A stretch of DNA of 64,000 bases from Spirochaetota bacterium (lineage in GTDB: Bacteria > Spirochaetota > JAHITG01 > JAFGFC01): NCBI GenBank assembly GCA_016931325.1, contig JAFGFC010000071.1, positions 11,379 through 75,378 of the forward strand, read 5' to 3'. Positions 19,815 through 62,871 of this stretch are shown here, in pieces. The notes beneath the pieces are model-generated. The model was not told where the DNA came from, searched no databases, and saw nothing but the letters and a program-made list of their open reading frames with translations. Position 1 is the first letter of the stretch. Each line of letters begins with the position of its first letter. The translations under genes were made by a program, and so were the position numbers.

Positions 19815-19843
19815 CTATTTAACAACCATTTGGGGATATGTCA
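19815..19843 (-). promoter_or_regulatory. Sigma70-like promoter for grpE-dnaJ
   Basis: Minus strand reads TTGACA - 17 nt - TAAATA, with the -10 about 30 nt upstream of the grpE ATG. No CIRCE inverted repeat was seen. Confidence 0.45.
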
Positions 19844-19850
19844 AGATTTT

Positions 19851-19878
19851 ATTGACATATAATTTTAATTTAATATTA
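19851..19878 (+). promoter_or_regulatory. Sigma70-like promoter for argG, divergent from the grpE promoter
   Basis: TTGACA (19851-19856) - 16 nt - TATTAT (19873-19878). Confidence 0.4.
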
Positions 19879-19902
19879 TGCTATTTTAAACTACAGACTA
19901 AT

Positions 19903-19952
19903 CTAGTTCATAGTTTTAAAAGCCCAGAACTAAGAACGATGAACTATGAACC
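19903..19952 (+). promoter_or_regulatory. Operator-like array in the argG leader: two TAGTTNN heptads, an 8-bp spacer, four tandem NGAACNA heptads
   Basis: tagttca tagtttt aaaagccc agaacta agaacga tgaacta tgaaccg. Left and right halves are reverse complements (tagttca / tgaacta). Confidence 0.45.
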
Positions 19953-19976
19953 GATGTTGTTGATGGAGGAAATATT

Positions 19977-21176
19977 ATGGAAGGGATTAAGAAGATCGTG
20001 CTGGCTTATTCCGGCGGACTGGATACATCAGTTATTTTAAAATGGCTTCATTTGACCTACAAAGCCGAGATCATTGCCTATGTGGCTGATCTCGGCCAGA
20101 AAGAGGATTTTGAAGCCATTAAGAAAAAAGCTCTGCAAACAGGAGCCAGTAAGGTCTATATAGAGGACCTGAAAGAGGAATTCGTTAAGGATTATATATT
20201 TCCTGTGATAAAAGCTAATGCCATATACGAATCAAAATACCTTTTAGGGACTTCCATGGCCCGTCCGCTGATCGCGAAACGTCAGATCGAGATCGCTCAT
20301 AAAGAAAAAGCTCAGGCCGTGTCTCACGGCGCTACAGGCAAAGGGAATGATCAGGTGCGGTTCGAATTAACGTACATGGCACTGGATGATAAGATAAAGA
20401 TCATTGCCCCGTGGCGAGAATGGGACTTTAAAGGGAGAGACGACCTTGTTGAATTTGCCCGAAAACATGAAATACCCGTGCCTGTAACAAAAAAAAAGCC
20501 TTACAGCTCTGACCCTAATATATTCCATATCAGTTATGAAAGCGGCATCCTTGAAGACATCACTCAGGAAGGACCGGATGATATGTTCTCCATGACTCAG
20601 TCACCGGAAAAGGCCCCGAATAAAAGTGAATATATAAATATTGAATTTGAAAAAGGAGAACCTGTTGGGATCAACGGAAAAAAATTTCCTCCGGTTAAAC
20701 TTCTCCAGACCTTGAACTCGATGGCCGGAAAACATGGGGTTGGCCGTACTGATATGGTTGAAAACCGTCTGGTAGGAATTAAAAACAGAGGAGTATACGA
20801 AACACCGGGCGGAACAGTTCTTATTCAGGCTCATAAAGATCTGGAAGCCATTACTCTTGATAAAGACACTTTACATTTTAAAGAGATCGTGGCCCTTCGC
20901 TACAGCGAACTGGTCTATAATGGCCAGTGGTTCACTCCCTTGAGAAAAGCCCTTGATCAATTTATCGATGCCACACAAAAATATGTTACAGGAAGTGTCA
21001 GAGTAAAACTTTTTAAAGGTCACAGTTCCGTAGTAGGAAGACAATCGCCTTATTCTCTTTATAATCCTGATCTGGCTACTTTTGAGAAAGAAGAGGTCTA
21101 TGACCAGAAAGATGCCAAAGGGTTCATCAACCTTTTTGGATTACAGATGAAATACGGACATAAAGATCTTTCATAA
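19977..21176 (+). CDS. argG: Argininosuccinate synthase
   Basis: The PP-loop [13 protein letters not shown] and the conserved ArgG core (...[14 protein letters not shown]...). Confidence 0.9.
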
Positions 21177-22242: not shown

Positions 22243-22494
22243 TTAATTGGTACGTTCTCTTGCTTCATTAACGCGCAAGGGTCGGCCTGAGAAATCCGAT
22301 CCATTCAATGCTTCAATGGCTTTTATAGCATCATCATCTTCCATCTCAACAAAGCCAAATCCGCGGGATCTTCCTGTGTGACGATCCGTAACAATTTTAG
22401 CTGACAGTACAGTACCGTGTTTTTCGAACAATTCTTTCAGATCATCTTCAGATGTCTGGAACGGAATGTTCCCTACGTAAATTTTCTTCGCCAT
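22243..22494 (-). CDS. RRM-type RNA-binding protein (glycine-rich Rbp-like)
   Basis: RNP2 KIYVGNIPF and RNP1 RGFGFVEM. Confidence 0.8.
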   Translation of the reverse strand: MAKKIYVGNIPFQTSEDDLKELFEKHGTVLSAKIVTDRHTGRSRGFGFVEMEDDDAIKAIEALNGSDFSGRPLRVNEARERTN

Positions 22495-32818: not shown

Positions 32819-32866
32819 AAGGATAAGATAAAGCTAATCAGAAAAAAGTCAACTATAAAACGGTTT

Positions 32867-34843
32867 CTATCTGTATGCTTTGTATAATTTTTTCTGGATT
32901 CGATTTAGCATATTATGTATCTCATCAATATCAAATGGCTTTGATAAAAAACCCCAGGCGCCCATTTTTTTGATCTTGTCAATATCTGTTTCCGGCTGAC
33001 CTGACATGACGACGATCTTCAGATCAGGCTTAATCCTTTTTAATTCCCTCAAGAGGTCTTCGCCCTTTATATCAGGCATTAAAAGATCGATAAATATCAG
33101 ATCAATTTTACTTCCCCTTGCAAAAGAGAGGGCTTGTTGACCTGAAGTGGCAACAAATACAGATTGTAATTTTTCTTTCATCAGATAGCGTTTTAAGAAA
33201 TCGGTTATAGCTTTTTCATCATCGATAATAAGGACATTCAATCCCTTGAGGTCATCGTTTCCAATAAAGAATTTTTTTCGTGTCCCTTTCACTGTGGTTC
33301 TGATCCGGGAAACAGGTAGAGTAACGATCACTTCTGTCCCTTTGCCTTTCTCGCTTTCCACATGGATAGTCCCATGATGATTCATTATAATGATGTATGA
33401 CACGGAAAGCCCCAGGCCTGTTCCTTTTATTCCATGCCTGTCTCTGGCATGGGCACCTTTGGTGGTAAAGAAGGGATTAAAAATATTTTTTCTGGTTTCC
33501 TCATCCATCCCGATCCCGTTATCCCTGATCTCAATCCGGACAAGGTCTTCCGAATCACTTATGGAAACTGTGATCATACCTTTGCCTTGCGGTTTGATGG
33601 CCTGCCGGGCGTTTAAAAGAATATTTAATAAGACCTGACCGATCTGCCCGCAATCGACATGGACTTGTTGTTTCTGGGTGTATTTTCTGATCACCTCAAT
33701 ATTCTCATACTTGAAAAAGTCCTTCTGCAGTCGAAGGACTTCGTCCATAACCTGGCTGATATCACAAACTTCTCTTTTTGGTTCCCTGGGCCTGGAAAAG
33801 GTCATCATATTCTCAACGATTTCAGACCCTCTCTTCGTCTGTCTTTCAATTGTAGAAAGGTCCTTGAACAGTTCTGAATTTTCCTCGATCGATAATTTCG
33901 AAAGTTGTACAGTTCCCTGAATGATAGCCAGAATATTATTAAATTCATGGGCCACACCGGCAGCCAGTTGTCCCACAGCCGCAAACTTTTCCGCATGAAC
34001 GAGCTGATCCTGCAGGATTTTTCGTTGTGTTATATCTGTGGCAATACAGGTTATACCGACGGTGACAGGATAGATCCTCACTTCATAATACCCTTTTCTC
34101 CCATCCGGAAAAACTAACTCATCCTCAATGACACGCTCCCTGCGGTTCTTCATAACATACCGATAGGCTTCGAAAAAAACAGAATTCTCTATTTCCGGAA
34201 AAAGATCCGTCAATTTAATACCGATCAACTTTTTTCTGGATATCTGAAGCATTCTGACGGCCGCCTCATTCACCAGCACATATCGCCATTGTCTGTCGAA
34301 AACATAAACTCCATCTGAAATGGATTCCACCAGAAGTCTGTACTTTTCTTCACTCTCTTTTAACAGCTCTTCAGATTGTTTTCGCTGAGTTATATCCTCT
34401 CCTGAACTCAATGTGCTTGTTACTCTGCCTTGATCATCCCTCAAAACAGTATTATGCCATAGAATGATCCTTTCCTCGCCTTGTTTTGTCAGGACAGGAT
34501 TTTCATAATACTCTGCTGGTTCTATCTGACCTTTAATGAGTTTATTAAAAACTCTTTTAGTATTTCCACTTGACTTTTTTGGAAGAAAATAATTAAACCA
34601 ATTTTTTCCAATGATTTCTTCTTCCTTATATCCCAGGATCTGACAGCCTTTTTTATTTATTAAAGAAACTTTGCCATCGCGATCGAGAACAACAAATATA
34701 ACACCAGCCACATCAAGATATTGCTGGGCTTTTTTTGCCTGGCTTATTATCTGTTCTTTTTCTTTTTTCTTCTTTGTTAATGTTTCCATATTGATTCTGT
34801 CATGAGTTATGTTAGATTCAAGTCCCCCTGACATAAAAATCAC
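32867..34843 (-). CDS. Hybrid sensor histidine kinase: two PAS domains, HisKA, HATPase_c, C-terminal receiver
   Basis: H-box AAGVAHEFNNIL. GHKL boxes (...RDNGIGMDEE..., GTGLGLSV). Receiver LIIDDEKAITDFLKRYL...DLIFIDLLMPDIKG. Confidence 0.8.
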   Translation of the reverse strand: MIFMSGGLESNITHDRINMETLTKKKKEKEQIISQAKKAQQYLDVAGVIFVVLDRDGKVSLINKKGCQILGYKEEEIIGKNWFNYFLPKKSSGNTKRVFNKLIKGQIEPAEYYENPVLTKQGEERIILWHNTVLRDDQGRVTSTLSSGEDITQRKQSEELLKESEEKYRLLVESISDGVYVFDRQWRYVLVNEAAVRMLQISRKKLIGIKLTDLFPEIENSVFFEAYRYVMKNRRERVIEDELVFPDGRKGYYEVRIYPVTVGITCIATDITQRKILQDQLVHAEKFAAVGQLAAGVAHEFNNILAIIQGTVQLSKLSIEENSELFKDLSTIERQTKRGSEIVENMMTFSRPREPKREVCDISQVMDEVLRLQKDFFKYENIEVIRKYTQKQQVHVDCGQIGQVLLNILLNARQAIKPQGKGMITVSISDSEDLVRIEIRDNGIGMDEETRKNIFNPFFTTKGAHARDRHGIKGTGLGLSVSYIIIMNHHGTIHVESEKGKGTEVIVTLPVSRIRTTVKGTRKKFFIGNDDLKGLNVLIIDDEKAITDFLKRYLMKEKLQSVFVATSGQQALSFARGSKIDLIFIDLLMPDIKGEDLLRELKRIKPDLKIVVMSGQPETDIDKIKKMGAWGFLSKPFDIDEIHNMLNRIQKKLYKAYR

Positions 34844-34942
34844 GGCTATTTGATAATATAAATCTTTATTGAAATGTCAATTTTAATTTCCATTTACATA
34901 AGTATTGACATTCCCCTCTATTTGCCTTAAATTATCCTCTGT

Positions 34943-37372
34943 ATGAAAACAATAAAGGAAAAACTGGATCAGATCTTTACATTGCCCAATATAGAGAAAG
35001 TGACACTGGTTTCCCTTTCCGTCTATTCCCTGTTCCTGGGCCTCTTATTGGGGTTCATGGTGGTGTCTCTACAGAACCTGACCGGTATCAAGGAGTTGGA
35101 GGACTACAGGCCGGCTACGGTGACAAAGATCTATGATAATGAAGGCCGACTGATCTCCGAATACTTTGAGGAACAGCGTGAAATCGTTTCGTTAAAAGAA
35201 ATACCAGAGCTCTTAACCAAAGCTTTAGTGGCTGTGGAAGATCAGAAATTCTATCAACATAAAGGTATCCACTTCCAGGGTATTGTCCGTGCTTTTGTGG
35301 TCAATATGCTTGCCGGATATATAAAGGAAGGAGGGAGCACCATAACTCAGCAGTTGTCCAAGATCCTTTTTACCACACGAAAAAAAAGTATCTTTCGCAA
35401 GTTGAAAGAAGCCTGGCTGGCTTTCCAGATCGAAAAATTATATACAAAAGAAGAGATCATCGAATTCTATCTGAATCAGGTCTATTTCGGACACGGGGCT
35501 TATGGTGTTGAAGCCGCTTCCCGTTTCTATTTTAATAAGCGTGTATCCGATCTGAATGTGGCAGAATGCGCCCTTCTGGCAGCCCTTCCTGCGGCTCCAA
35601 ATAAATATTCTCCTATCAAGGATCCTGAAACTTCGCAGCAACGTCATAAAAAAGTATTGAACCATATGGTGGAAAGCGGCATTATAGATGAAGAACAGGC
35701 TCAATCGGACTATTATGATTTCTGGATCAATTATCAGGGTAAGATCGTAGCCCCTAATTCGTCTTTCTGGAAGATCAGGGTTGATAATGCTCCTCATTTT
35801 ACCGAGCATGTTCGCCGGATAATGGAAAAACGCTTTGGTGAAAAGATCCTTTATACCGAAGGAATGCGTATCTATACGACACTGAATCTTGATATGCAGA
35901 AAGCCGCGCAGGAAACTTTATGGAAACGCCTCCAGGCCCACAATAACAGATATTATACCCGTATCGAGCAGGTCAATAAAAATTTTGACAAGAATTTTGC
36001 AGACTTGATCTCCCTGATGGGTTTGATCCTTGACAACAAAAAGATCGCTAATTTAAGTACCCATAAAGAATTGAATCGGTTTAATTATTATTTTTCAAAA
36101 GAATCGCTGGAACAATTTGATCTGGCTTCACTTATCTTCGGGCTGGATGATATTCATCGGTTGTTCCGGATCTATCGAACAACGAGATCACAGAAAGTGG
36201 TTCAGGATAAAGTCGAAGGGGCGATCATATCCATTGAACCCTATTCAGGTTATATTAAAGCCATGGTTGGAGGAAGCGAATTCACTCCTGAAAATCAGTA
36301 TAACCGGGCTGTACAGTCTTACAGACAGCCTGGTTCAGCTTTTAAACCTTTTGTTTATATGGCAGCACTTGATACCGGTCGGTTTACCCCTGCTACGACT
36401 TTTACTGACTCACCTGTGGTTTATTTTGACGGGGAAGGCAAAGAATGGATCCCTAACAATTATACAGGCCAGTACTATGGACTGGTAACATTGAGAAAAG
36501 CATTGCAAAAGTCCATTAACATTATCTCCGTTATGCTGGCTGACCAGGTGGAAATCGATAATGTAAGAGAGCTGGCCGCCAAAATGCTGCATATTTATGA
36601 TTATCATGAGATGAAGAAAAATCTGCCTGATGATCTTTCCCTGGCTCTGGGCACCGCAACCGTAACTCCTTTGCAAATGGCCAATGCCTTTGCTATCATA
36701 GCCAATAAAGGGCGTGACGTTATCCCTATTTCCATAAAATACATCAAGGACAGAAACAATAATGTTCTTGTTGATATGCAAAAAGAACTAGCCCGAAAAC
36801 CCCGCAGGCAGATCATCACACCTCAGGTGGCTTTTCTTATAACCGATATGATGAAAAGTGTGCTTAAACCGGGAGGGACCGCCTGGGGAGCCGCTATTGA
36901 AACTGATTTCTGGTTGCCAGCAGCCGGAAAGACCGGCACGACCGACAACTGGAGGGATGCCTGGTTTGCGGGATTTACAGAAAAACTGGCCTCGGTGGTT
37001 TGGGTAGGATTTGATAATTATAGCCGTTCCCTTGGCCTGGGAGAAGAAGGCGGCAAGGTAGCGGCCCCTATCTGGTGCGAATATATGAAAAAAGCCATGA
37101 GGAATTATTACCTGAGTGATTTTGAAGTCCCCCCGGGGATCACCAAAGTGGATATTTGTTTAAGATCAGGCAAATTGGTCTCAAATGATTGCAAAGAACG
37201 CGGTGTTGAATATTTTATTGAAGGGAGCGAACCCTCTCAGGAATGCACCAGTTGTAAAGAAGGATATAAACAGTTTGAATTTGATGAAGAAAAAGTGGAA
37301 AAGATCCTTGACGAAAAGAGAAAAAAACTGAAAGATAAAATATTTAAAGATAAATTCAGGCTCAAGCTTTGA
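34943..37372 (+). CDS. mrcA: Class A penicillin-binding protein 1A (transglycosylase plus transpeptidase)
   Basis: N-terminal TM. GT51 motifs (EDQKFYQHKGI, GGSTITQQL). Transpeptidase SxxK (GSAFKPF), SxN, KTGTT. Confidence 0.85.
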   Translation: MKTIKEKLDQIFTLPNIEKVTLVSLSVYSLFLGLLLGFMVVSLQNLTGIKELEDYRPATVTKIYDNEGRLISEYFEEQREIVSLKEIPELLTKALVAVEDQKFYQHKGIHFQGIVRAFVVNMLAGYIKEGGSTITQQLSKILFTTRKKSIFRKLKEAWLAFQIEKLYTKEEIIEFYLNQVYFGHGAYGVEAASRFYFNKRVSDLNVAECALLAALPAAPNKYSPIKDPETSQQRHKKVLNHMVESGIIDEEQAQSDYYDFWINYQGKIVAPNSSFWKIRVDNAPHFTEHVRRIMEKRFGEKILYTEGMRIYTTLNLDMQKAAQETLWKRLQAHNNRYYTRIEQVNKNFDKNFADLISLMGLILDNKKIANLSTHKELNRFNYYFSKESLEQFDLASLIFGLDDIHRLFRIYRTTRSQKVVQDKVEGAIISIEPYSGYIKAMVGGSEFTPENQYNRAVQSYRQPGSAFKPFVYMAALDTGRFTPATTFTDSPVVYFDGEGKEWIPNNYTGQYYGLVTLRKALQKSINIISVMLADQVEIDNVRELAAKMLHIYDYHEMKKNLPDDLSLALGTATVTPLQMANAFAIIANKGRDVIPISIKYIKDRNNNVLVDMQKELARKPRRQIITPQVAFLITDMMKSVLKPGGTAWGAAIETDFWLPAAGKTGTTDNWRDAWFAGFTEKLASVVWVGFDNYSRSLGLGEEGGKVAAPIWCEYMKKAMRNYYLSDFEVPPGITKVDICLRSGKLVSNDCKERGVEYFIEGSEPSQECTSCKEGYKQFEFDEEKVEKILDEKRKKLKDKIFKDKFRLKL

Positions 37373-37522
37373 CGGATCGTTACTTGAATGTATTTTAAAT
37401 GAATAGTTAAATAAACAATCCGTCAGTTCGAAGTTCTAGGTTCGAAGTTCAAATCTTCTGCCTTGCAATTCGACACTCTGGAATTTCTAAGACCCCTAGA
37501 AATTGCCAAGCAATTCCAAGGG
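37371..37522 (+). repeat. Structured intergenic element, copy 3: long hairpin, four GTTCNAN heptads, nested GGAATT/AATTCC hairpins
   Basis: gacggatcgtt...aacaatccgtc is an 11-bp stem with a 32-nt loop. Heptads agttcga agttcta ggttcga agttcaa (37425-37452). Outer stem ccttgcaatt/aattccaagg encloses ggaatttcta/tagaaattgcc. Confidence 0.5.
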
Positions 37523-37545
37523 ATGCGTCAGGATCAATAAAACTT

Positions 37546-38061
37546 ATGAAATACAGTGAAAATACATTAGAAGAAAAAGCCATAGAACAGGCCCTGGGTC
37601 TCATAGCCACAGCTATCAAGACATCGCCTAAATCAAGAGGATTGAATGCTTTAAAAGTCATCGCTCTTACGGATAAGGAAAAGAACAAACTGGCCAAAAA
37701 AATGAGCACCATTAACAAGCATCCTTTTCCAAGAGATTCTAAAAATATCGAGAAGGCTGATGCCATTATCCTGATCGGGATGAAAACCATGCATATGGGA
37801 CTGAATTGCGGCATGTGCGGTTATAAGGACTGTGCTGACAGTCAGGGGAAAAAAGGTCATTGCATTTTTAATACGATCGATCTGGGAATTGCTCTGGGTT
37901 CAGCTGTATCTACCATTTCTGATCTAAAGATCGATTCCCGTATCATGTATTCAGCCGGTATGACTGCCAGGGATATGGGCCTGTTTCCAAAAGAATATCG
38001 TATTGTAATGGGTATCCCCCTTTCTATTTCGCAGAAGAATATTTTTTTTGACAGAAAATAA
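37546..38061 (+). CDS. DUF2148-like ferredoxin-domain protein (COG4739-type)
   Basis: GLNCGMCGYKDC Cys cluster. About 170 aa. Family assignment is from memory. Confidence 0.45.
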   Translation: MKYSENTLEEKAIEQALGLIATAIKTSPKSRGLNALKVIALTDKEKNKLAKKMSTINKHPFPRDSKNIEKADAIILIGMKTMHMGLNCGMCGYKDCADSQGKKGHCIFNTIDLGIALGSAVSTISDLKIDSRIMYSAGMTARDMGLFPKEYRIVMGIPLSISQKNIFFDRK

Positions 38062-38066
38062 TAAAT

Positions 38067-38157
38067 TAGTTTATAGTTCTTGGTTTATTTTCATCAAACA
38101 ACGTTACAAACTGTTAATTAAAATTTCCCTAAACTAAGAACTACGAACGACGAACTA
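38067..38157 (+). promoter_or_regulatory. Second operator-like heptad array: two TAGTTNN heptads, then, 49 nt downstream, tandem NGAACNA heptads just upstream of the 38172 gene
   Basis: tagttta tagttct (38067-38080), then aaaacta agaacta cgaacga cgaacta (38130-38157). Same motif family as at argG. Confidence 0.4.
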
Positions 38158-38171
38158 AAAACCAAGTTATT

Positions 38172-38507
38172 ATGATCGAACAATACGAATTTGGAAAGAT
38201 CGTTATCCATGGAAAAACCTACACCAGTGATATCATTATCCTTCCTGACAATACCATCATATCCTGGTGGAGAAACACCGGGCATAATGTTATCAATGAA
38301 GACCTTGAAATTGTATATCATGCCAAACCAAACGTCCTTGTGCTCGGTTGCGGAGCGTATGGTGTCATGCGGGTCTCAAATGAGGTGAAGACATACTGCG
38401 ATGAGAACCGCATTAAGTTGATCATGGAAAAATCAAAAAAGGCTGTGGAATTATTTAATGCCGAAAAATCCATGTCAAAGGCTGCCGGATTTCATCTTAC
38501 GTGTTAA
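38172..38507 (+). CDS. Mth938-like domain (DUF498) protein
   Basis: About 110 aa. The GKTYTSDIIILPDNTIISWW...VLVLGCGAYG pattern resembles the Mth938/NDUFAF3-like fold family. Confidence 0.4.
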   Translation: MIEQYEFGKIVIHGKTYTSDIIILPDNTIISWWRNTGHNVINEDLEIVYHAKPNVLVLGCGAYGVMRVSNEVKTYCDENRIKLIMEKSKKAVELFNAEKSMSKAAGFHLTC

Positions 38508-38568
38508 TTAAAGACGGTGTATGATAATCAATTTAGAATAACATCATTATTTTTCAAGGAGTAGTATT

Positions 38569-39123
38569 GTGAGTGTTAAAAGTGATAAATGGATCAAAAA
38601 AATGTCGATCAATCATAAAATGATCGAGCCATTTGAAGAAAAGCAGGTCAGAAAAGATGTTATATCCTTTGGATTGTCTTCTTATGGATATGATATCAGG
38701 GTTTCGGACGAATTCAGGGTATTCAAGAATCAATCACCCGACCTTTTGATCGATCCCAAGAATCCCAGTGACTCATTTATAACAATAAAAGATAAATTCT
38801 GTATCATACCCCCGCACAGCTTCGTTTTGACCCAGACCGTGGAATACTTCAGGATCCCCCGAAATATCATTACTCTGTGTGTGGGAAAATCAACCTACGC
38901 AAGGTGTGGCATCCTGGTAAATGTAACTCCCTTCGAACCTGAGTGGGAAGGACATGCGACCCTGGCTATCTCTAATATTACCCCGCTGCCGGCCAAAATC
39001 TATGCCAATGAAGGTATCGCACAGGTTTTGTTCTTTGAAAGCGATGAGATCTGTCAAATCTCTTATAAGGATAAAAAAGGAAAGTATCAAAAACAGACCA
39101 GGATCACTCCCGCAAAGTTATAA
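38569..39123 (+). CDS. dcd: dCTP deaminase
   Basis: 184 aa. dUTPase-like trimer fold motifs [31 protein letters not shown]. Confidence 0.85.
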
Positions 39124-39140
39124 ATGATTTGATAAAAAAA

Positions 39141-39168
39141 GGCAGCCCTTTGGGCTGCCTTTTTTTAT
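39141..39168. terminator. Bidirectional intrinsic terminator after dcd
   Basis: aaaaaaa ggcagccc ttt gggctgcc tttttttat: a GC-rich 8-bp stem with a U-tract. Confidence 0.75.
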
Positions 39169-40088: not shown

Positions 40089-40108
40089 ATCTTCCCTCCT
40101 CTTTGTAA

Positions 40109-40126
40109 CCGAGCCTTTAGGCTCGG
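40109..40126. repeat. REP-like palindrome CCGAGCC-TTTA-GGCTCGG, copy 1
   Basis: Perfect 7-bp GC-rich stem. The same element recurs at 46259, 61090 and, degenerate, at 51414. Confidence 0.5.
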
Positions 40127-40141
40127 AAAATATATATCCTT

Positions 40142-41224
40142 TTATTCATCTATGAACTTTTTTTTGAGATCCTCATCTTCAGACAATTCCTCAACGATCT
40201 TTTTGATCTCCTGCTCTCTGGATTTATCCATAACCAGAAGAGCATTTTTACTTTTCACTATAATAAGATTATTAACGCCCAGGGTAACCACCAGGTCACC
40301 GTCACTTACAATAATAGAATTTTTTGTATCCTGTCCTTTCCATAATGATTTTATAATATTTCGATCAGGATCAACACCTGTCACTCTTTCCAAAGCGGTC
40401 CAGGAACCAACATCATCCCAGGTGAATCTGGATTTCAAACACAGGACATTATCCGCATGTTCCATGACCCCATAGTCAATGGATATCCTTGGCAGAGCGT
40501 GGAAAACGTCATGAACAGCCCTGTCTTCTTCGTCCGTGTCCATAACATCCTGAATCTGCATTAATCCCTCAAAAAGTTCCTTCATATGCTTTTCGATCGC
40601 TTCCATAATGGAAGGTATAGTCCATATGAACATACCGCTGTTCCATACAAAATTTCCTTTTTCATTATACATTTTAGCGGTTGCATAATCAGGTTTCTCT
40701 TTAAAGCTTTTAACCTCATAAGCAGGGGTATCATAAGTATCATTGATGATCTCTCCCAGTTCTATATGACCATACCCTGTCGAGATCCTTGTCGGCTGTA
40801 TCCCAAAGGTGATAAGACACCCTGTCTCTTTGGCGATCCTGGAGGCGTTGAAAAGGTCCTTTTGGAAGAGATCCTTCTCTTTTATTGTATGATCAGCCGG
40901 GAGAACAGCCACCACAGACCCGGGAGATCTTTTGTTCACCATGGTAACAGCGAAACCTATGGCTGCGGCCGTATCTTTTGGCATGGGTTCAATGATAAAA
41001 TTTTCATCGGGAAAATCTTTTATAATCGCTTTTATGGGAGGGACAAGATCTTTTCTTGTGGAGATAAAAATATCTTCTGTTTTTACCAGCCCTTCCAGCC
41101 TTTCGATGGTCTCTTCCAGCATGGTCTTTGAACTGACAATAGGTAAAAGCTGTTTTGGCTTTGTAAGACGGCTAAAAGGCCAGAATCTCTCCCCCTTTCC
41201 GCCGGCCAGAATGATAATCTTCAT
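40142..41224 (-). CDS. Mannose-1-phosphate guanylyltransferase-like sugar nucleotidyltransferase
   Basis: MKIIILAGGKGERFWPFSRLTKPKQLL is the G-x-G-T-R-hmm NTP-transferase N-terminus. 360 aa with no cupin domain. Confidence 0.7.
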   Translation of the reverse strand: MKIIILAGGKGERFWPFSRLTKPKQLLPIVSSKTMLEETIERLEGLVKTEDIFISTRKDLVPPIKAIIKDFPDENFIIEPMPKDTAAAIGFAVTMVNKRSPGSVVAVLPADHTIKEKDLFQKDLFNASRIAKETGCLITFGIQPTRISTGYGHIELGEIINDTYDTPAYEVKSFKEKPDYATAKMYNEKGNFVWNSGMFIWTIPSIMEAIEKHMKELFEGLMQIQDVMDTDEEDRAVHDVFHALPRISIDYGVMEHADNVLCLKSRFTWDDVGSWTALERVTGVDPDRNIIKSLWKGQDTKNSIIVSDGDLVVTLGVNNLIIVKSKNALLVMDKSREQEIKKIVEELSEDEDLKKKFIDE

Positions 41225-46175: not shown

Positions 46176-46258
46176 TTGACGTCCTCATGTATAATGAATT
46201 GTATAATTTAACAACAAAAAAGAGAATGTCAAGCCTATTTTTCGTTCATGGTTCATAG

Positions 46259-46306
46259 CCGAGCCTTCAGGCTCGGGGATTATAATTTCCGAACCTTAAG
46301 GTTCGG
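46259..46306. repeat. Two adjacent short palindromes in the divergent promoter region: CCGAGCC-TTCA-GGCTCGG (REP-like copy 2) and CCGAACC-TTAA-GGTTCGG
   Basis: Both are perfect 7-bp stems with 4-nt loops, 12 nt apart. Confidence 0.5.
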
Positions 46307-46350
46307 CTTTTAGATTGACATTCCTGAAGATGAGTGATATATTATAAATA

Positions 46351-47007
46351 ATGAGAATATTCATTATCTTTTTAACCCTGTTGCTTGTTTTATCAAACGC
46401 GGGAAAAGCAGCGCCTGAATCACCCAATCGGTTTATCATCCTTGGCGGAATTATTGGAGGCATTGAACTGATACATGGGATCGTTCAGATCTTTTCGGAT
46501 GATGAAGAAACCATTAATACCAATTTATCCCAGGAGGAAAAAAAAGAGATAAATGATCTCTTAAAACCTTCTGATCTGTTAGATATTCTGAAAAAAAAAG
46601 ACTCGGAAATAAGCTCTTCCGTCTCAAATCTTACGGCACAAGAAAAAACCTCCCTCACGACCAATACCAATATCACAGTAAAAAATGAAAAAGAATCAAA
46701 ACCTGTGCCTGAGGAAGTTGATGTTATCCCAACCGAAGAAGATGAATATTTTACCTTTAAGATAACCAGTTTAACCTATAAAACCATAAAAAAATACAAA
46801 AAAGGGGCTGTAGACTATTATGAAGTGGGAGTGGCTTATTTTAATGCTGACAAGAAAAAGAAGGCCCGGGAGTACCTTTTGCACACCGTCGCCATTAACG
46901 TGAGGAAGGATGAAGCCATTGATTTTCTCATCCATAACTATGCCATGACCCGTCAGGAAATAATGAAAGAGAAGAAAAAATATATAAAATTAAAAGATAA
47001 AGATTGA
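46351..47007 (+). CDS. Hypothetical secreted protein
   Basis: Signal peptide MRIFIIFLTLLLVLSNAGKAA. A TTGACA-17-TATATT promoter ends 7 nt before the ATG, so the transcript may be leaderless. Confidence 0.4.
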   Translation: MRIFIIFLTLLLVLSNAGKAAPESPNRFIILGGIIGGIELIHGIVQIFSDDEETINTNLSQEEKKEINDLLKPSDLLDILKKKDSEISSSVSNLTAQEKTSLTTNTNITVKNEKESKPVPEEVDVIPTEEDEYFTFKITSLTYKTIKKYKKGAVDYYEVGVAYFNADKKKKAREYLLHTVAINVRKDEAIDFLIHNYAMTRQEIMKEKKKYIKLKDKD

Positions 47008-47149
47008 ATGGTTCCAGGCTTCAGGAGCCTCTTCCCCTATTATTTGCCATCCATGAACTATTATTTTAAAAAGGGGCAAAAAGTACCTGGCATCGCTGGC
47101 CCAAGATTAAACTTGACATCCATTAAAAAACATGTAAATTAGGTTAATT

Positions 47150-48127
47150 ATGGTGGAAATAAGCGGTCAGCTAACATTTGATGACAGTCCACTGATATTA
47201 AAATTCAATACGGCCGTAGATTATATACGAAATGGTGAATTTAACAAGGCATTGGAAAATATGGAAGACATTTTAAACACAAGTCCTGATTTTCCCGGGC
47301 TGCTGGAAGGGATCAAGAGCGTGAAATTCTGGCAGAACCGATGGCTCAAGGTTATGAGGACTCAACCGGGAAAAGAACAGTCTGATCTTTTACTTGATGA
47401 GTGGGCTCAATACGAGAAATACTGGAACTCTTTTCCTTCTCATTCGGAAAAGATCCTTATCACCATTAAAAATTTGATCTATAAAAAAATCATTAAAAAT
47501 CTGATCGCCGCTTTTAAAAATTCAGAGGTTCCCAATGTCACCATCCTGATCAAGATGGGAATGATCTTTTTAGAAATAGATGAATATATTAAAGCCATTG
47601 AGACTCTGGAATATGCCCGTATGTTCAAGAAAAAGGATTCCCATATTCTGGGTCTTTTAGCTGAAGCCTACGCAAGGCAGGGGAATATTCAAAAAGCGAA
47701 ATCTCTTTTCAGAGAAGCCTTTTTATATAACCCCCTGGAAGTTGATCTGGGTGTTATAAGATCAGAAATGATAACAGATATAACCAAACAGATACAAGAA
47801 CAGAAGGTCGACCCTAAACTGCTTGGGGAATGGATACCGGTTTACGGGACAGTCATGAATGTTTTTAACATTAAAAGGGAATTATCGATTGAGGAAATCA
47901 ACAAGCTGGCCACTGAAGCCGAAGAGATGGAAAAAGACTTTTATAATGAAAAATTTAACCATGAAACGATCCTGCCGAAACTTATCAACCGTTACCTCTG
48001 GATCATCGATTACTACGTCTTCCAATCTCCCAACAAAGAATATACTAGAATATATATGAACAAACTGAAAGAAGTTCATCCGCAGATCTACGAACGTTAT
48101 TTCAGCTTGATCAATTTAAAGAACTAA
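47150..48127 (+). CDS. Hypothetical cytoplasmic TPR-like helical protein
   Basis: No signal peptide. A TPR-like segment (...YIKAIETLEYARMFKKKDSHILGLLAEAYARQGNIQKAKSLFREAF). Confidence 0.4.
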   Translation: MVEISGQLTFDDSPLILKFNTAVDYIRNGEFNKALENMEDILNTSPDFPGLLEGIKSVKFWQNRWLKVMRTQPGKEQSDLLLDEWAQYEKYWNSFPSHSEKILITIKNLIYKKIIKNLIAAFKNSEVPNVTILIKMGMIFLEIDEYIKAIETLEYARMFKKKDSHILGLLAEAYARQGNIQKAKSLFREAFLYNPLEVDLGVIRSEMITDITKQIQEQKVDPKLLGEWIPVYGTVMNVFNIKRELSIEEINKLATEAEEMEKDFYNEKFNHETILPKLINRYLWIIDYYVFQSPNKEYTRIYMNKLKEVHPQIYERYFSLINLKN

Positions 48128-51392: not shown

Positions 51393-51471
51393 GGGATTTC
51401 GAACTTAACAGGCCCGAGCCTAAAGGCCCGGCTACTATGTTCGGCTATTACAAAATGGAGGTAATTATAAA

Positions 51472-58610: not shown

Positions 58611-58661
58611 ATTACGAATTAAATAGCTTTGAGAAAGCAAGTCAACTCTTTTTAGATTCTC

Positions 58662-59058
58662 GTTCGAGGTTCGACGTGCGACGTCAACGCACAGGAAGTG
58701 CGTTGGGTCAAATCGGCCTGGAAGGCTGAGATTTGACCACGAAGTTCGATGAACAGGATGGTCATCGGATCGGCTCAGTTCCCCTGCAATTCATGGAATT
58801 GCGGGGATTAAATCCCGGAAATAGCCCTGCCATTTCAAGGGACGTAGCATTTCCAGGGTAAAGTCCTTGGAATTGCTACGCAATTCCTAAGGAGTCTTAA
58901 TCCTCGGAATTTCTCGGAGAAATTCCAGAGGGATGAATTGCAGGGGAGAGGATTCGACACTCCTACATCCTGCCCCTAGAAATTTTTTATCGAAAAATTT
59001 CAGGGGTATAGTCCCTGGAATTGTACTTTGGACAATTCCTAGGGATAGGTCGTCGAAC
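58662..59058 (+). repeat. Structured intergenic element, copy 1: GTTCGAN heptads, conserved hairpin module, then five tandem GGAATT/AATTCC-type hairpins, bounded by inverted CGTTCGACG-like ends
   Basis: Left end gttcgag gttcgac gtgcgac. Hairpins caacgcac-aggaa-gtgcgttg and cccctgcaatt-catgg-aattgcgggg. Further hairpins at 58868-58892, 58904-58924, 58975-59006 and 59015-59046. Right end ggtcgtcgaacg. The module is homologous to 62672..62818. Confidence 0.55.
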
Positions 59059-59115
59059 GTATTATTGCTTGACTTTGTTAAAGATTATACTATCTTGAAA
59101 AATCTTTAAATAGAG

Positions 59116-60984: not shown

Positions 60985-61073
60985 GGAGAGGTGCTGGAGT
61001 GGACGATCAGGGCTGCCTGCTAAGCAGTTGTAGGGGTTAAACTCTACCGAGGGTTCGAATCCCTCCCTCTCCG
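60985..61073 (+). tRNA. tRNA-Ser (anticodon GCU), class II
   Basis: Acceptor GGAGAGG/CCTCTCC. Anticodon loop CTGCTAA. Long variable arm GTAG...CTAC. T-loop GGTTCGAATCC. Confidence 0.85.
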
Positions 61074-61089
61074 CATATAATGACTGTAG

Positions 61090-61107
61090 CCGAGCCTTCA
61101 GGCTCGG
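61090..61107. repeat. REP-like palindrome CCGAGCC-TTCA-GGCTCGG, copy 3
   Basis: Identical to the copy at 46259..46276, including the flanking TAG...AAA context. Confidence 0.5.
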
Positions 61108-61124
61108 AAAGTAAGGTAAATATT

Positions 61125-62667: not shown

Positions 62668-62671
62668 TATG

Positions 62672-62818
62672 GTTCGACGCGCGACGTTCGAGGTTCGAAG
62701 TTCGACACACAGGAAGTGTGTCGGGTCGAATCCCTCCCCTGCAATTTGGAAAATTGCGGGGATCAAATCCCGGAAATGCTTCGCATTTCACAGGACATGG
62801 ATGGTTGGGATTCGACCA
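62672..62818 (+). repeat. Structured intergenic element, copy 2 (compact): five GTTCGAN heptads followed by a multi-stem module
   Basis: Heptads gttcgac gcgcgac gttcgag gttcgaa gttcgac. Hairpin cgacacac-aggaa-gtgtgtcg. Outer stem gggtcgaatccc/gggattcgacc encloses cccctgcaatt-tggaa-aattgcgggg and gaaatgc-ttc-gcatttc. Confidence 0.55.
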
Positions 62819-62871
62819 CTTTGTTTAATGATATAAGCAATTAACTATCTTTTATCTTATGGATAATAAAA

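Follow-up and report, generated by a model that had tools for sequence, protein, structure and literature searches.

A heptanucleotide repeat element with inverted arms upstream of a DUF498 gene, probably a copy of a lineage-specific dispersed intergenic repeat

Among the simple-sequence repeats of bacteria, including those of intergenic DNA, heptameric repeats form an over-represented class (PMC4692102, PMC4679880). In marine Beggiatoaceae, the heptamer TAACTGA forms 169 sets of 2–6 copies, some of which are split by related heptamers (MacGregor 2015, PMC4679880). Most sets stand forward, immediately before a start codon, and a Shine-Dalgarno sequence is present in only about 10% of these upstream regions. 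The genes downstream share no functional theme. The same repeats occur with a patchy distribution in some Cyanobacteria and Bacteroidetes (PMC4679880). The heptamers of Calothrix, Nostoc and Xanthomonas are largely intergenic and vary between close relatives, for which polymerase slippage has been suggested (PMC4692102). Examples are the three tandem heptanucleotides of Calothrix PCC 7601, GGGGA(T/C)T and TTTTGAA in Nostoc PCC 7120, and GGGAATC in Xanthomonas (PMC4692102; bioRxiv 10.1101/2022.06.06.494920). In Nostoc, contiguous heptamers near start codons or promoters have been proposed to modulate the expression of recF and recO (bioRxiv 10.1101/2022.06.06.494920). Heptads are also read by a protein, omega (ParB) of pSM19035, for which a run of four or more contiguous heptads, in either orientation, is required (PMC9499535). 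Arrays of tandem heptamers are enriched in the genomes of many bacteria.

The element described here lies upstream of a DUF498/Mth938-like gene in a window of 64,000 nt, the whole stretch of DNA analysed (Table 1). The first-pass annotation had placed this gene in the context DUF2148 / Mth938-like / dcd, which was confirmed. Direct reading also found TAGTTTA TAGTTCT at 38067–38080, as that annotation had reported; both units of its two-unit left arm are present, and the arm is longer, with a third unit TGGTTTA and its end at 38087. For the right-arm units that it had given at 38130–38157, the position and the last three units hold, and the first unit is taaacta, not aaaacta. That annotation had put 14 nt between the end of the array and the ATG at 38172. 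There is a fifth unit, however, AAAACCA at 38158–38164, which brings the true distance to 7 nt, and the right arm occupies the site expected for a Shine-Dalgarno sequence. No Shine-Dalgarno-like tetramer was found upstream of this ATG. The start codon is supported by the homologue P0002, which has the same length and a conserved N-terminus. Tandem Repeats Finder (TRF) gave the right arm a period of 7 and 3.7 copies. The spacer between the arms showed no similarity to other intergenic DNA of the window, except for an AAAA..CCC end that is common to the argG copy described below.

Table 1. Coordinates of the element, its neighbours and the related arrays, in window positions.
Feature	Position	Strand	Description
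Left arm	38067..38087	+	3 heptads TAGTTTA TAGTTCT TGGTTTA; GTTC orientation; read directly
Spacer between arms	38088..38129	+	42 nt, A/T-rich; 3′ end AAAATTTCCC
Right arm	38130..38164	+	5 heptads TAAACTA AGAACTA CGAACGA CGAACTA AAAACCA; GAAC orientation, sense to DUF498
Inverted repeat of the two arms	38074..38143	.	14-bp stem (38074–38087 with 38130–38143) and 42-nt loop
argG 5′ leader, sibling copy	19904..19953	+	TAGTTCA TAGTTTT, AAAAGCCC, AGAACTA AGAACGA TGAACTA TGAACCG
DUF498/Mth938-like gene	38172..38507	+	111 aa; dcd downstream
DUF2148 ferredoxin-domain gene	37546..38061	+	Between heptad arrays of opposite orientation (37426–37450, 38130–38164)
Predicted sigma-70-type promoter	38048..38077	+	TTGACA-18 nt-TATAGT, 11/12; consensus match only
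GTTCGAN-type array	37426..37450	+	4 units, then palindromic modules; PBP1A-DUF2148 spacer of 173 nt
GTTCGAN-type array	58662..58679	+	Left end of a cluster of about 10 hairpins, ~400 nt; between divergent dinB / surA-like promoters
GTTCGAN-type array	62672..62706	+	5 units, just after the nupC stop codon; hairpin modules common with the 58.7-kb cluster
Two-unit GAACNAN array	46242..46254	-	TGAACCA TGAACGA; beside hairpin CCGAGCCTTCAGGCTCGG, upstream of ABC transporter promoter

Together the two arms make up a genuine inverted repeat. Positions 38074–38087 (TAGTTCTTGGTTTA) are complementary to 38130–38143 (TAAACTAAGAACTA) at 13 of 14 positions, and the fourteenth is a G-U pair. As RNA, this inverted repeat folds at -18.4 kcal/mol (z = -1.96); as single-stranded DNA its fold has z = -2.79, and 1 of 200 shuffles was equally good. 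The predicted -10 lies within the left arm and the predicted -35 within the last DUF2148 codons, at which the nearest relative has TTGATA. Transcription from this promoter would start near 38084. The 88 nt of the predicted leader contain 43% A and 8% G, and they fold less well than their shuffles (z = +0.83). If the gene is instead read through from DUF2148, the -18 kcal/mol stem of the arms would pair the first two right-arm units.

A Shine-Dalgarno sequence is missing from about half of the window's genes (approximately 45% have a Shine-Dalgarno-like tetramer), and several genes look leaderless; its absence at DUF498 is therefore not exceptional alone. Promoters of the form TTGACA-17 nt-TAnnnT that end about 7–10 nt before a start codon were seen at 34900–34945, 46315–46353, 47112–47152 and 32844–32880, which suggests that leaderless mRNAs may be frequent in this organism.

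The first-pass annotation had claimed that the same composite site stands before two unrelated genes, and the comparison with the argG leader makes this claim stronger than first stated. The argG right arm (19926–19954) and the DUF498 right arm (38137–38165) align over 29 nt, with 23 identical bases (79%). The unit variants follow in the same order in both, namely GAAC-TA, GAAC-GA, GAAC-TA and then AAC-C (C-purine). Both right arms are preceded by AAAA..CCC and, farther upstream, by the inverted TAGTT arm carrying TAGTTNNTAGTT. The exact TAGTTNNTAGTT has three matches in the window, all in these two loci: in the DUF498 left arm, in the argG leader, and in the DUF498 right arm on the opposite strand. 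In the shuffle control of the window, GAACNANGAACNA had 5 matches against 0.03 expected. For the 21-nt box AGAACTANGAACGANGAACTA, 0.01 matches were expected and 2 observed, one at argG and one at DUF498. Judged by sequence, the argG copy is a true homologue of the DUF498 copy, more than a look-alike.

The two copies differ in their layout. Their internal segments are unlike in sequence and in length, the arms being 42 nt apart at DUF498 and 8 nt apart at argG. At DUF498 the predicted -10 falls within the left arm, whereas at argG the left arm lies at about +18 of the predicted promoter (TTGACA-16 nt-TATTAT, 19852–19879), which would leave both arms in the leader. The argG array is followed by 23 nt containing GGAGG and then by the ATG at 19977. 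The fold of the argG leader is unremarkable (z = -0.9).

The first-pass annotation had let its claim depend on a third instance in the genome and on conservation across relatives. The 21-nt box has no third copy in the window, and the third instance exists only as further members of a broader heptad family. GTTC-core arrays of period 7 occur at five loci in the 64 kb against 0.18 expected, all of them intergenic, and intergenic DNA makes up about 9% of the window. The loci are argG, DUF498, 37426–37450, 58662–58679 and 62672–62706 (TRF period 7, 3.1–5.0 copies), and a two-unit array stands at 46242–46254. The units fall into two subtypes: GAAC-N-A-N at argG, DUF498 and 46242, and GTTCGAN at 37426, 58662 and 62672, where the arrays are joined to hairpin modules common to the loci. 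Three array loci adjoin clusters of palindromic hairpins, and at 58.7 kb an inverted CGAAC unit (59048–59058) closes the cluster. The neighbours (argG, DUF498, PBP1A/DUF2148, dinB/surA-like, nupC and an ABC transporter) are ordinary housekeeping genes with no functional relation to one another. All copies are short, they have diverged, and their units are degenerate, with GAAC plus one A as the constant part.

Chance low-complexity similarity or an assembly artefact is hardly credible as the source of this pattern. In its favour, the region is rich in A/T, and sequence databases contain many short heptad arrays of various kinds. Against this, 2–5 occurrences were observed where shuffles gave 0.01–0.18, the order of the units is common to the two copies, and an independent Logan assembly of the same sample (L001) is identical over 37486–38798.

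Several other repeats were seen in the window. The 475-nt dinB/surA-like spacer (58641–59115) holds about 10 hairpins of the form CCC(N)GGAATT...AATTCC(N)GGG with linkers of 6–7 nt, and resembles a BIME-like mosaic with GTTCGAN heptads at its left end and the inverted CGAAC at its right. Its modules recur at 62668–62820 and 37455–37525. A scan of metagenome contigs with the hairpin-module pattern CACAGGAAGTGNGTNGGGTC gave four chance matches in high-GC coding DNA and neither further copies nor a closer relative. The array-plus-hairpin insert between PBP1A and DUF2148 is flanked by a 6-nt direct repeat CGTCAG (37421–37426 and 37526–37531), which could be a target-site duplication of this composite copy or chance. 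At 62720–62745 the composite repeat contains GGGTCGAATCCCTCCCCTGCA, which is like the T-arm and 3′ end of the nearby tRNA-Ser genes (61051–61073); the two are identical at 13 of 13 positions over TCGAATCCCTCCC, and the GTTCGAN heptad matches the T-loop consensus. This likeness may hint at a tRNA-derived origin of the composite repeat, or it may be a coincidence. A second small repeat family consists of about five copies of the hairpin (T)AGCCGAGCCTTCAGGCTCGG and variants (40104–40129, 46256–46277, 46289–46306, 51413–51435 and 61085–61110), part of them at terminator-like sites and others between divergent promoters.

Among 5.8 billion database proteins, the closest sequences to DUF498, DUF2148 and ArgG had 62%, 71% and 76% identity, and the best relatives of all three are in one MAG, GCA_964605455.1. 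Its GC content is about 30%, against 40% here. It keeps the synteny of DUF498-dcd-Big-NTP_transferase and of dnaJ-grpE / argG-corA. A scan of genome contigs with the DUF498 protein gave Pirellulales matches at 41–46% identity only, with no close relative among them.

The conservation across relatives that had been named beforehand as a test was not found: the one syntenic relative available has no arrays. In it (contig L005), clpB is followed by a 30-nt spacer with AAGGAG and then by DUF498-dcd, without heptads. Elsewhere in the relative, PBP1A is followed by 12 nt with GGAGG, DUF2148 and then a DUF3352 gene. In a second relative the PBP1A-DUF2148 gap is 10 nt, against 173 nt with an array and hairpins here. 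No GTTC arrays or comparable period-7 arrays were found in ~120 kb of related contigs (L005–L008 and L013–L021, several overlapping). The DUF2148/DUF498 junction is thus a synteny breakpoint occupied by the element in place of an ordinary spacer, because the relative has the orders clpB-DUF498 and PBP1A-DUF2148-DUF3352 and no arrays. The 173-nt PBP1A/DUF2148 spacer is likewise filled by the array plus hairpins. With protein identities of 62–76%, absence from so distant a relative shows lineage specificity, which is neither a date nor a proof of insertion. Downstream, the relative has thyX after dcd (L005, 9713–10339); thyX is absent here, and dcd is directly followed by a terminator hairpin (39124–39164).

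The grpE/argG region was conserved differently. About 60 nt with both divergent -35/-10 elements are nearly identical in the relative (L013), and the argG leader downstream of them is unrelated. The conservation of this promoter block (TGTCAAGATTTTATTGACATATAAT, 19819–19879 against L013 7980–8045) is unusually strong for non-coding DNA, given an ArgG identity of 76% and a GC content 10% lower in the relative.

These comparisons bear on whether the arrays are DNA operators, with one heptad bound per dimer and a protein polymerising along the repeats, as omega and other ribbon-helix-helix proteins do on direct and inverted heptads; such a protein would repress or co-regulate argG and DUF498-dcd. 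We regard this as improbable. The 4–5 contiguous 7-bp units plus inverted units recall the grammar of omega sites (PMC9499535), and the same motif, the 21-nt box, stands upstream of two genes and at no other place in the window. At DUF498 the predicted -10 is overlapped by the left arm, and both argG arms lie just downstream of the predicted promoter. However, this position relative to the predicted promoters is not consistent between the two genes, and the inverted arms are non-contiguous, with gaps of 42 and 8 nt. The sites are absent at the orthologous promoters of DUF498 (L005) and argG (L013), the latter in a promoter block that is otherwise conserved. Related arrays are found behind stop codons and within clusters of hairpins, arginine synthesis has no functional link with dCTP deaminase, and neither a candidate binder nor a transposase was found among about 40 window proteins scanned with Pfam. 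The same proteins included no ribbon-helix-helix or ParA protein.

Known regulatory sites were also considered. The ARG-box consensus is the palindrome TGAAT-N-ATTCA, and an ArgR site at argG was ruled out since the units there are direct TGAAC repeats. HutP/TRAP-like RNA sites have UAG at 7-nt spacing; such a site was ruled out because, for the long arm, it is the antisense strand on which UAG recurs periodically. Trans pairing of GTTCGAN array RNA with GAACNAN leaders was rejected because just the 4-nt cores would pair. A riboswitch, attenuator or other known RNA was ruled out by the absence of an Rfam match and by the argG fold: the gathering-threshold scan gave tRNAs only, and E-value scans of the DUF498 and argG leaders gave nothing relevant. 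ARAGORN called a 96-nt tRNA-Arg(TCG) at 40972–41067, inside the NTP_transferase gene on the opposite strand and with no Rfam support, which is probably a false positive.

The position of the DUF498 array raises another possibility, which we consider tentative and not likely. The sense GAACNAN arrays may be 5′-leader elements for translation initiation or control, as proposed for the Beggiatoaceae TAACTGA repeat. The A-rich unstructured leader would recruit ribosomes (e.g., through protein S1) or an RNA-binding protein instead of using a Shine-Dalgarno sequence, and base-pairing between the inverted left arm and the first units would tune access. At DUF498 the array lies 7 nt before an ATG that has no Shine-Dalgarno-like tetramer, where the orthologue has AAGGAG, and the predicted leader has the composition and weak folding described above. 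The array at argG likewise runs in sense, 23 nt before its ATG, and for 4 of the 6 arrays a start codon lies within 70 nt in the GAAC direction. The Beggiatoa sets likewise are mostly forward and just upstream of start codons, with a Shine-Dalgarno sequence in about 10% (PMC4679880). A protein of RRM type that could bind RNA may be encoded in the window. On the other side, just two arrays lie in predicted leaders, one of them, at argG, with a strong GGAGG kept; the remaining arrays precede -35 elements or follow stop codons. In any case a Shine-Dalgarno sequence is missing from about half of the window genes and several genes look leaderless, and the arrays are not conserved in relatives.

The putative RRM-type protein is an 83-aa ORF at 22243–22494 (-) with MAKKIYVGNIPF...RGFGFVEM, judged by eye. 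It is named here as a possible candidate binder of repeat-containing RNAs purely as a speculation.

A broader form of the translational proposal is a lineage-specific system in which GAAC heptads at 7-nt spacing would be read in leaders by a protein or the ribosome across the genome, substituting for Shine-Dalgarno pairing, with the inverted arm as an anti-element. We hold this to be rather unlikely. If true, such a GAAC expression system would be the second, independent case of a network of the kind that has been postulated for the Beggiatoaceae TAACTGA repeats.

Viral contigs provided a control for the forward orientation. A scan with (GAACNAN)x4 gave at least 120 loci, and the scrambled-core controls GCAANAN and AGCANAN also gave at least 120 each. 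Among the matches listed, many lie just upstream of start codons, and both controls showed the same forward bias upstream of ORFs. The bias is thus not GAAC-specific, which counts against the translational proposal, and the scans give no support to a GAAC-specific enrichment in viral contigs. The abundance of heptads in viral DNA is a general property of A-rich heptad repeats. Individual IMG/VR arrays, with between 4 and about 14 copies of a unit, for example (GAACCAA)n, (GAACTAT)n or (GAACGAC)n, were seen in contigs of all GC contents among L022–L141 (e.g., L083, L125, L072 and L112), often just upstream of ORF starts.

We conclude, with a probability of roughly 0.6, that 38067–38164 is a copy of a lineage-specific dispersed intergenic heptanucleotide repeat with a GTTC/GAAC core and two inverted arms, not the operator of a small regulon. 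The first-pass annotation had offered a shared regulator or a common mobile origin. A common repeat or mobile origin is favoured because there are further arrays, because the spacing and promoter geometry differ between copies, and because the relative has none; a shared regulator is not supported. The sequence agrees with the described class in its tandem 7-nt units (at least two per set), its dispersed intergenic sets and its lineage specificity. The units, NGAACNA / GTTCGAN, are not identical to those of the described families TAACTGA, CCCCAGT, GGGAATC and TTTTGAA. They are a new unit within a known class of dispersed intergenic heptamer repeats.

Such a repeat may have arisen when a short seed was copied or inserted into intergenic spacers in this lineage, followed by local expansion and decay of the arrays through replication slippage, a course that has been suggested for the over-represented heptamers of other bacteria. 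The element would then persist where it is tolerated, and its effects on DUF498-dcd would be by-products, possibly co-opted. We infer three of them: a TATAGT that resembles a -10 hexamer, 18 nt downstream of TTGACA; a stem of 14 bp formed by the inverted repeat, either in DNA or in read-through RNA; and the 88-nt A-rich, G-poor, unstructured leader, which would abut the start codon without a Shine-Dalgarno sequence.

Some points weigh against a dispersed repeat. The evidence comes from a single genome, of which 64 kb were analysed, and even the nearest relative is a distant one. No target-site duplication flanks 38067–38164, nor the argG copy. The copies are too short and diverged for a transposition mechanism to be named, and no transposase was seen in the window. 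Two sense arrays lie 7–23 nt from start codons, and the DUF498 copy replaces a ribosome-binding site, which would fit a selected function too.

The locus offers a before-and-after comparison, with a 30-nt spacer and its ribosome-binding site in the relative against the inverted heptad element here. At the breakpoint, the element appears to remove the ribosome-binding site and to bring in a -10-like hexamer. A function, if demonstrated, would strengthen the view that repeats of this sort can rewire the initiation of transcription or translation. If it has none, it calls for caution, since alike "composite sites" before unrelated genes can be repeat copies rather than operators.

The comparison with known systems places the dispersed heptad repeat nearest to other intergenic heptamers. 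Omega sites resemble it in their contiguous 7-bp repeats, direct and inverted, at promoters. The omega heptad consensus is WATCACW. Omega sites are strictly contiguous and plasmid-borne, and lie beside the genes of the binding protein and ParA. The heptads here are chromosomal, at scattered loci and with the arms separated by a gap: 4–5 direct units are contiguous, and the inverted units lie beyond that gap. A plasmid sequence similarity search gave no match to the element, and adjacent binder and ParA genes are absent, the neighbours being DUF2148, DUF498 and dcd.

Phase-variable 7-bp promoter repeats are found, for example, upstream of hmw1A/hmw2A in Haemophilus influenzae, where they are perfect and vary in copy number. 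Like the element here, they are heptanucleotide tandem repeats between a promoter and a start codon, and they can tune expression. The units here differ from one another, so slippage at the DUF498 array should be rare, and the one independent assembly is identical.

MITEs and REP/BIME elements are likewise short, non-coding and dispersed in intergenic DNA, with inverted termini, and one relative may carry a copy that another lacks. Like BIMEs, the composite copies at 37.4, 58.7 and 62.7 kb are put together as mosaics from palindromic units. The DUF498 copy has terminal inverted repeats (14 bp, 13/14 matching), but these are built of tandem heptads and are not a unique terminal inverted repeat. 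In contrast to MITEs and REP/BIME elements, it has no target-site duplication, no transposase or RAYT gene was seen, and the copies are not near-identical or of set length, with 29 nt shared at 79% identity.

The cyanobacterial and Xanthomonas heptamers share with the repeats here the tandem 7-nt units, the intergenic enrichment and the frequent position near promoters or start codons, and for them regulatory side effects are possible and unproven. The cyanobacterial and Xanthomonas arrays are usually perfect or near-perfect, and some are G-rich quadruplex formers, whereas the repeats here are imperfect and A-rich and have inverted arms.

By analogy, the closest parallel to the GAAC heptad family appears to be the Beggiatoaceae TAACTGA repeat. 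The two differ in unit sequence, and the units here are much more degenerate. The arrays here have an inverted partner arm, or in other copies clusters of palindromic hairpins; only 2 of 5–6 arrays lie near a start codon, and the host belongs to an unrelated uncultured lineage. A forward array abutting a start codon without a Shine-Dalgarno sequence is found at DUF498, as in the Beggiatoaceae sets, in part at argG, which keeps its Shine-Dalgarno sequence, and not at the other arrays, in what is a small sample. The two families share an AACT core, AACTGAT there and AACTANG here. They also have in common the 7-nt period, the copy number, the dispersal in intergenic sets beside unrelated genes, and the lineage specificity.
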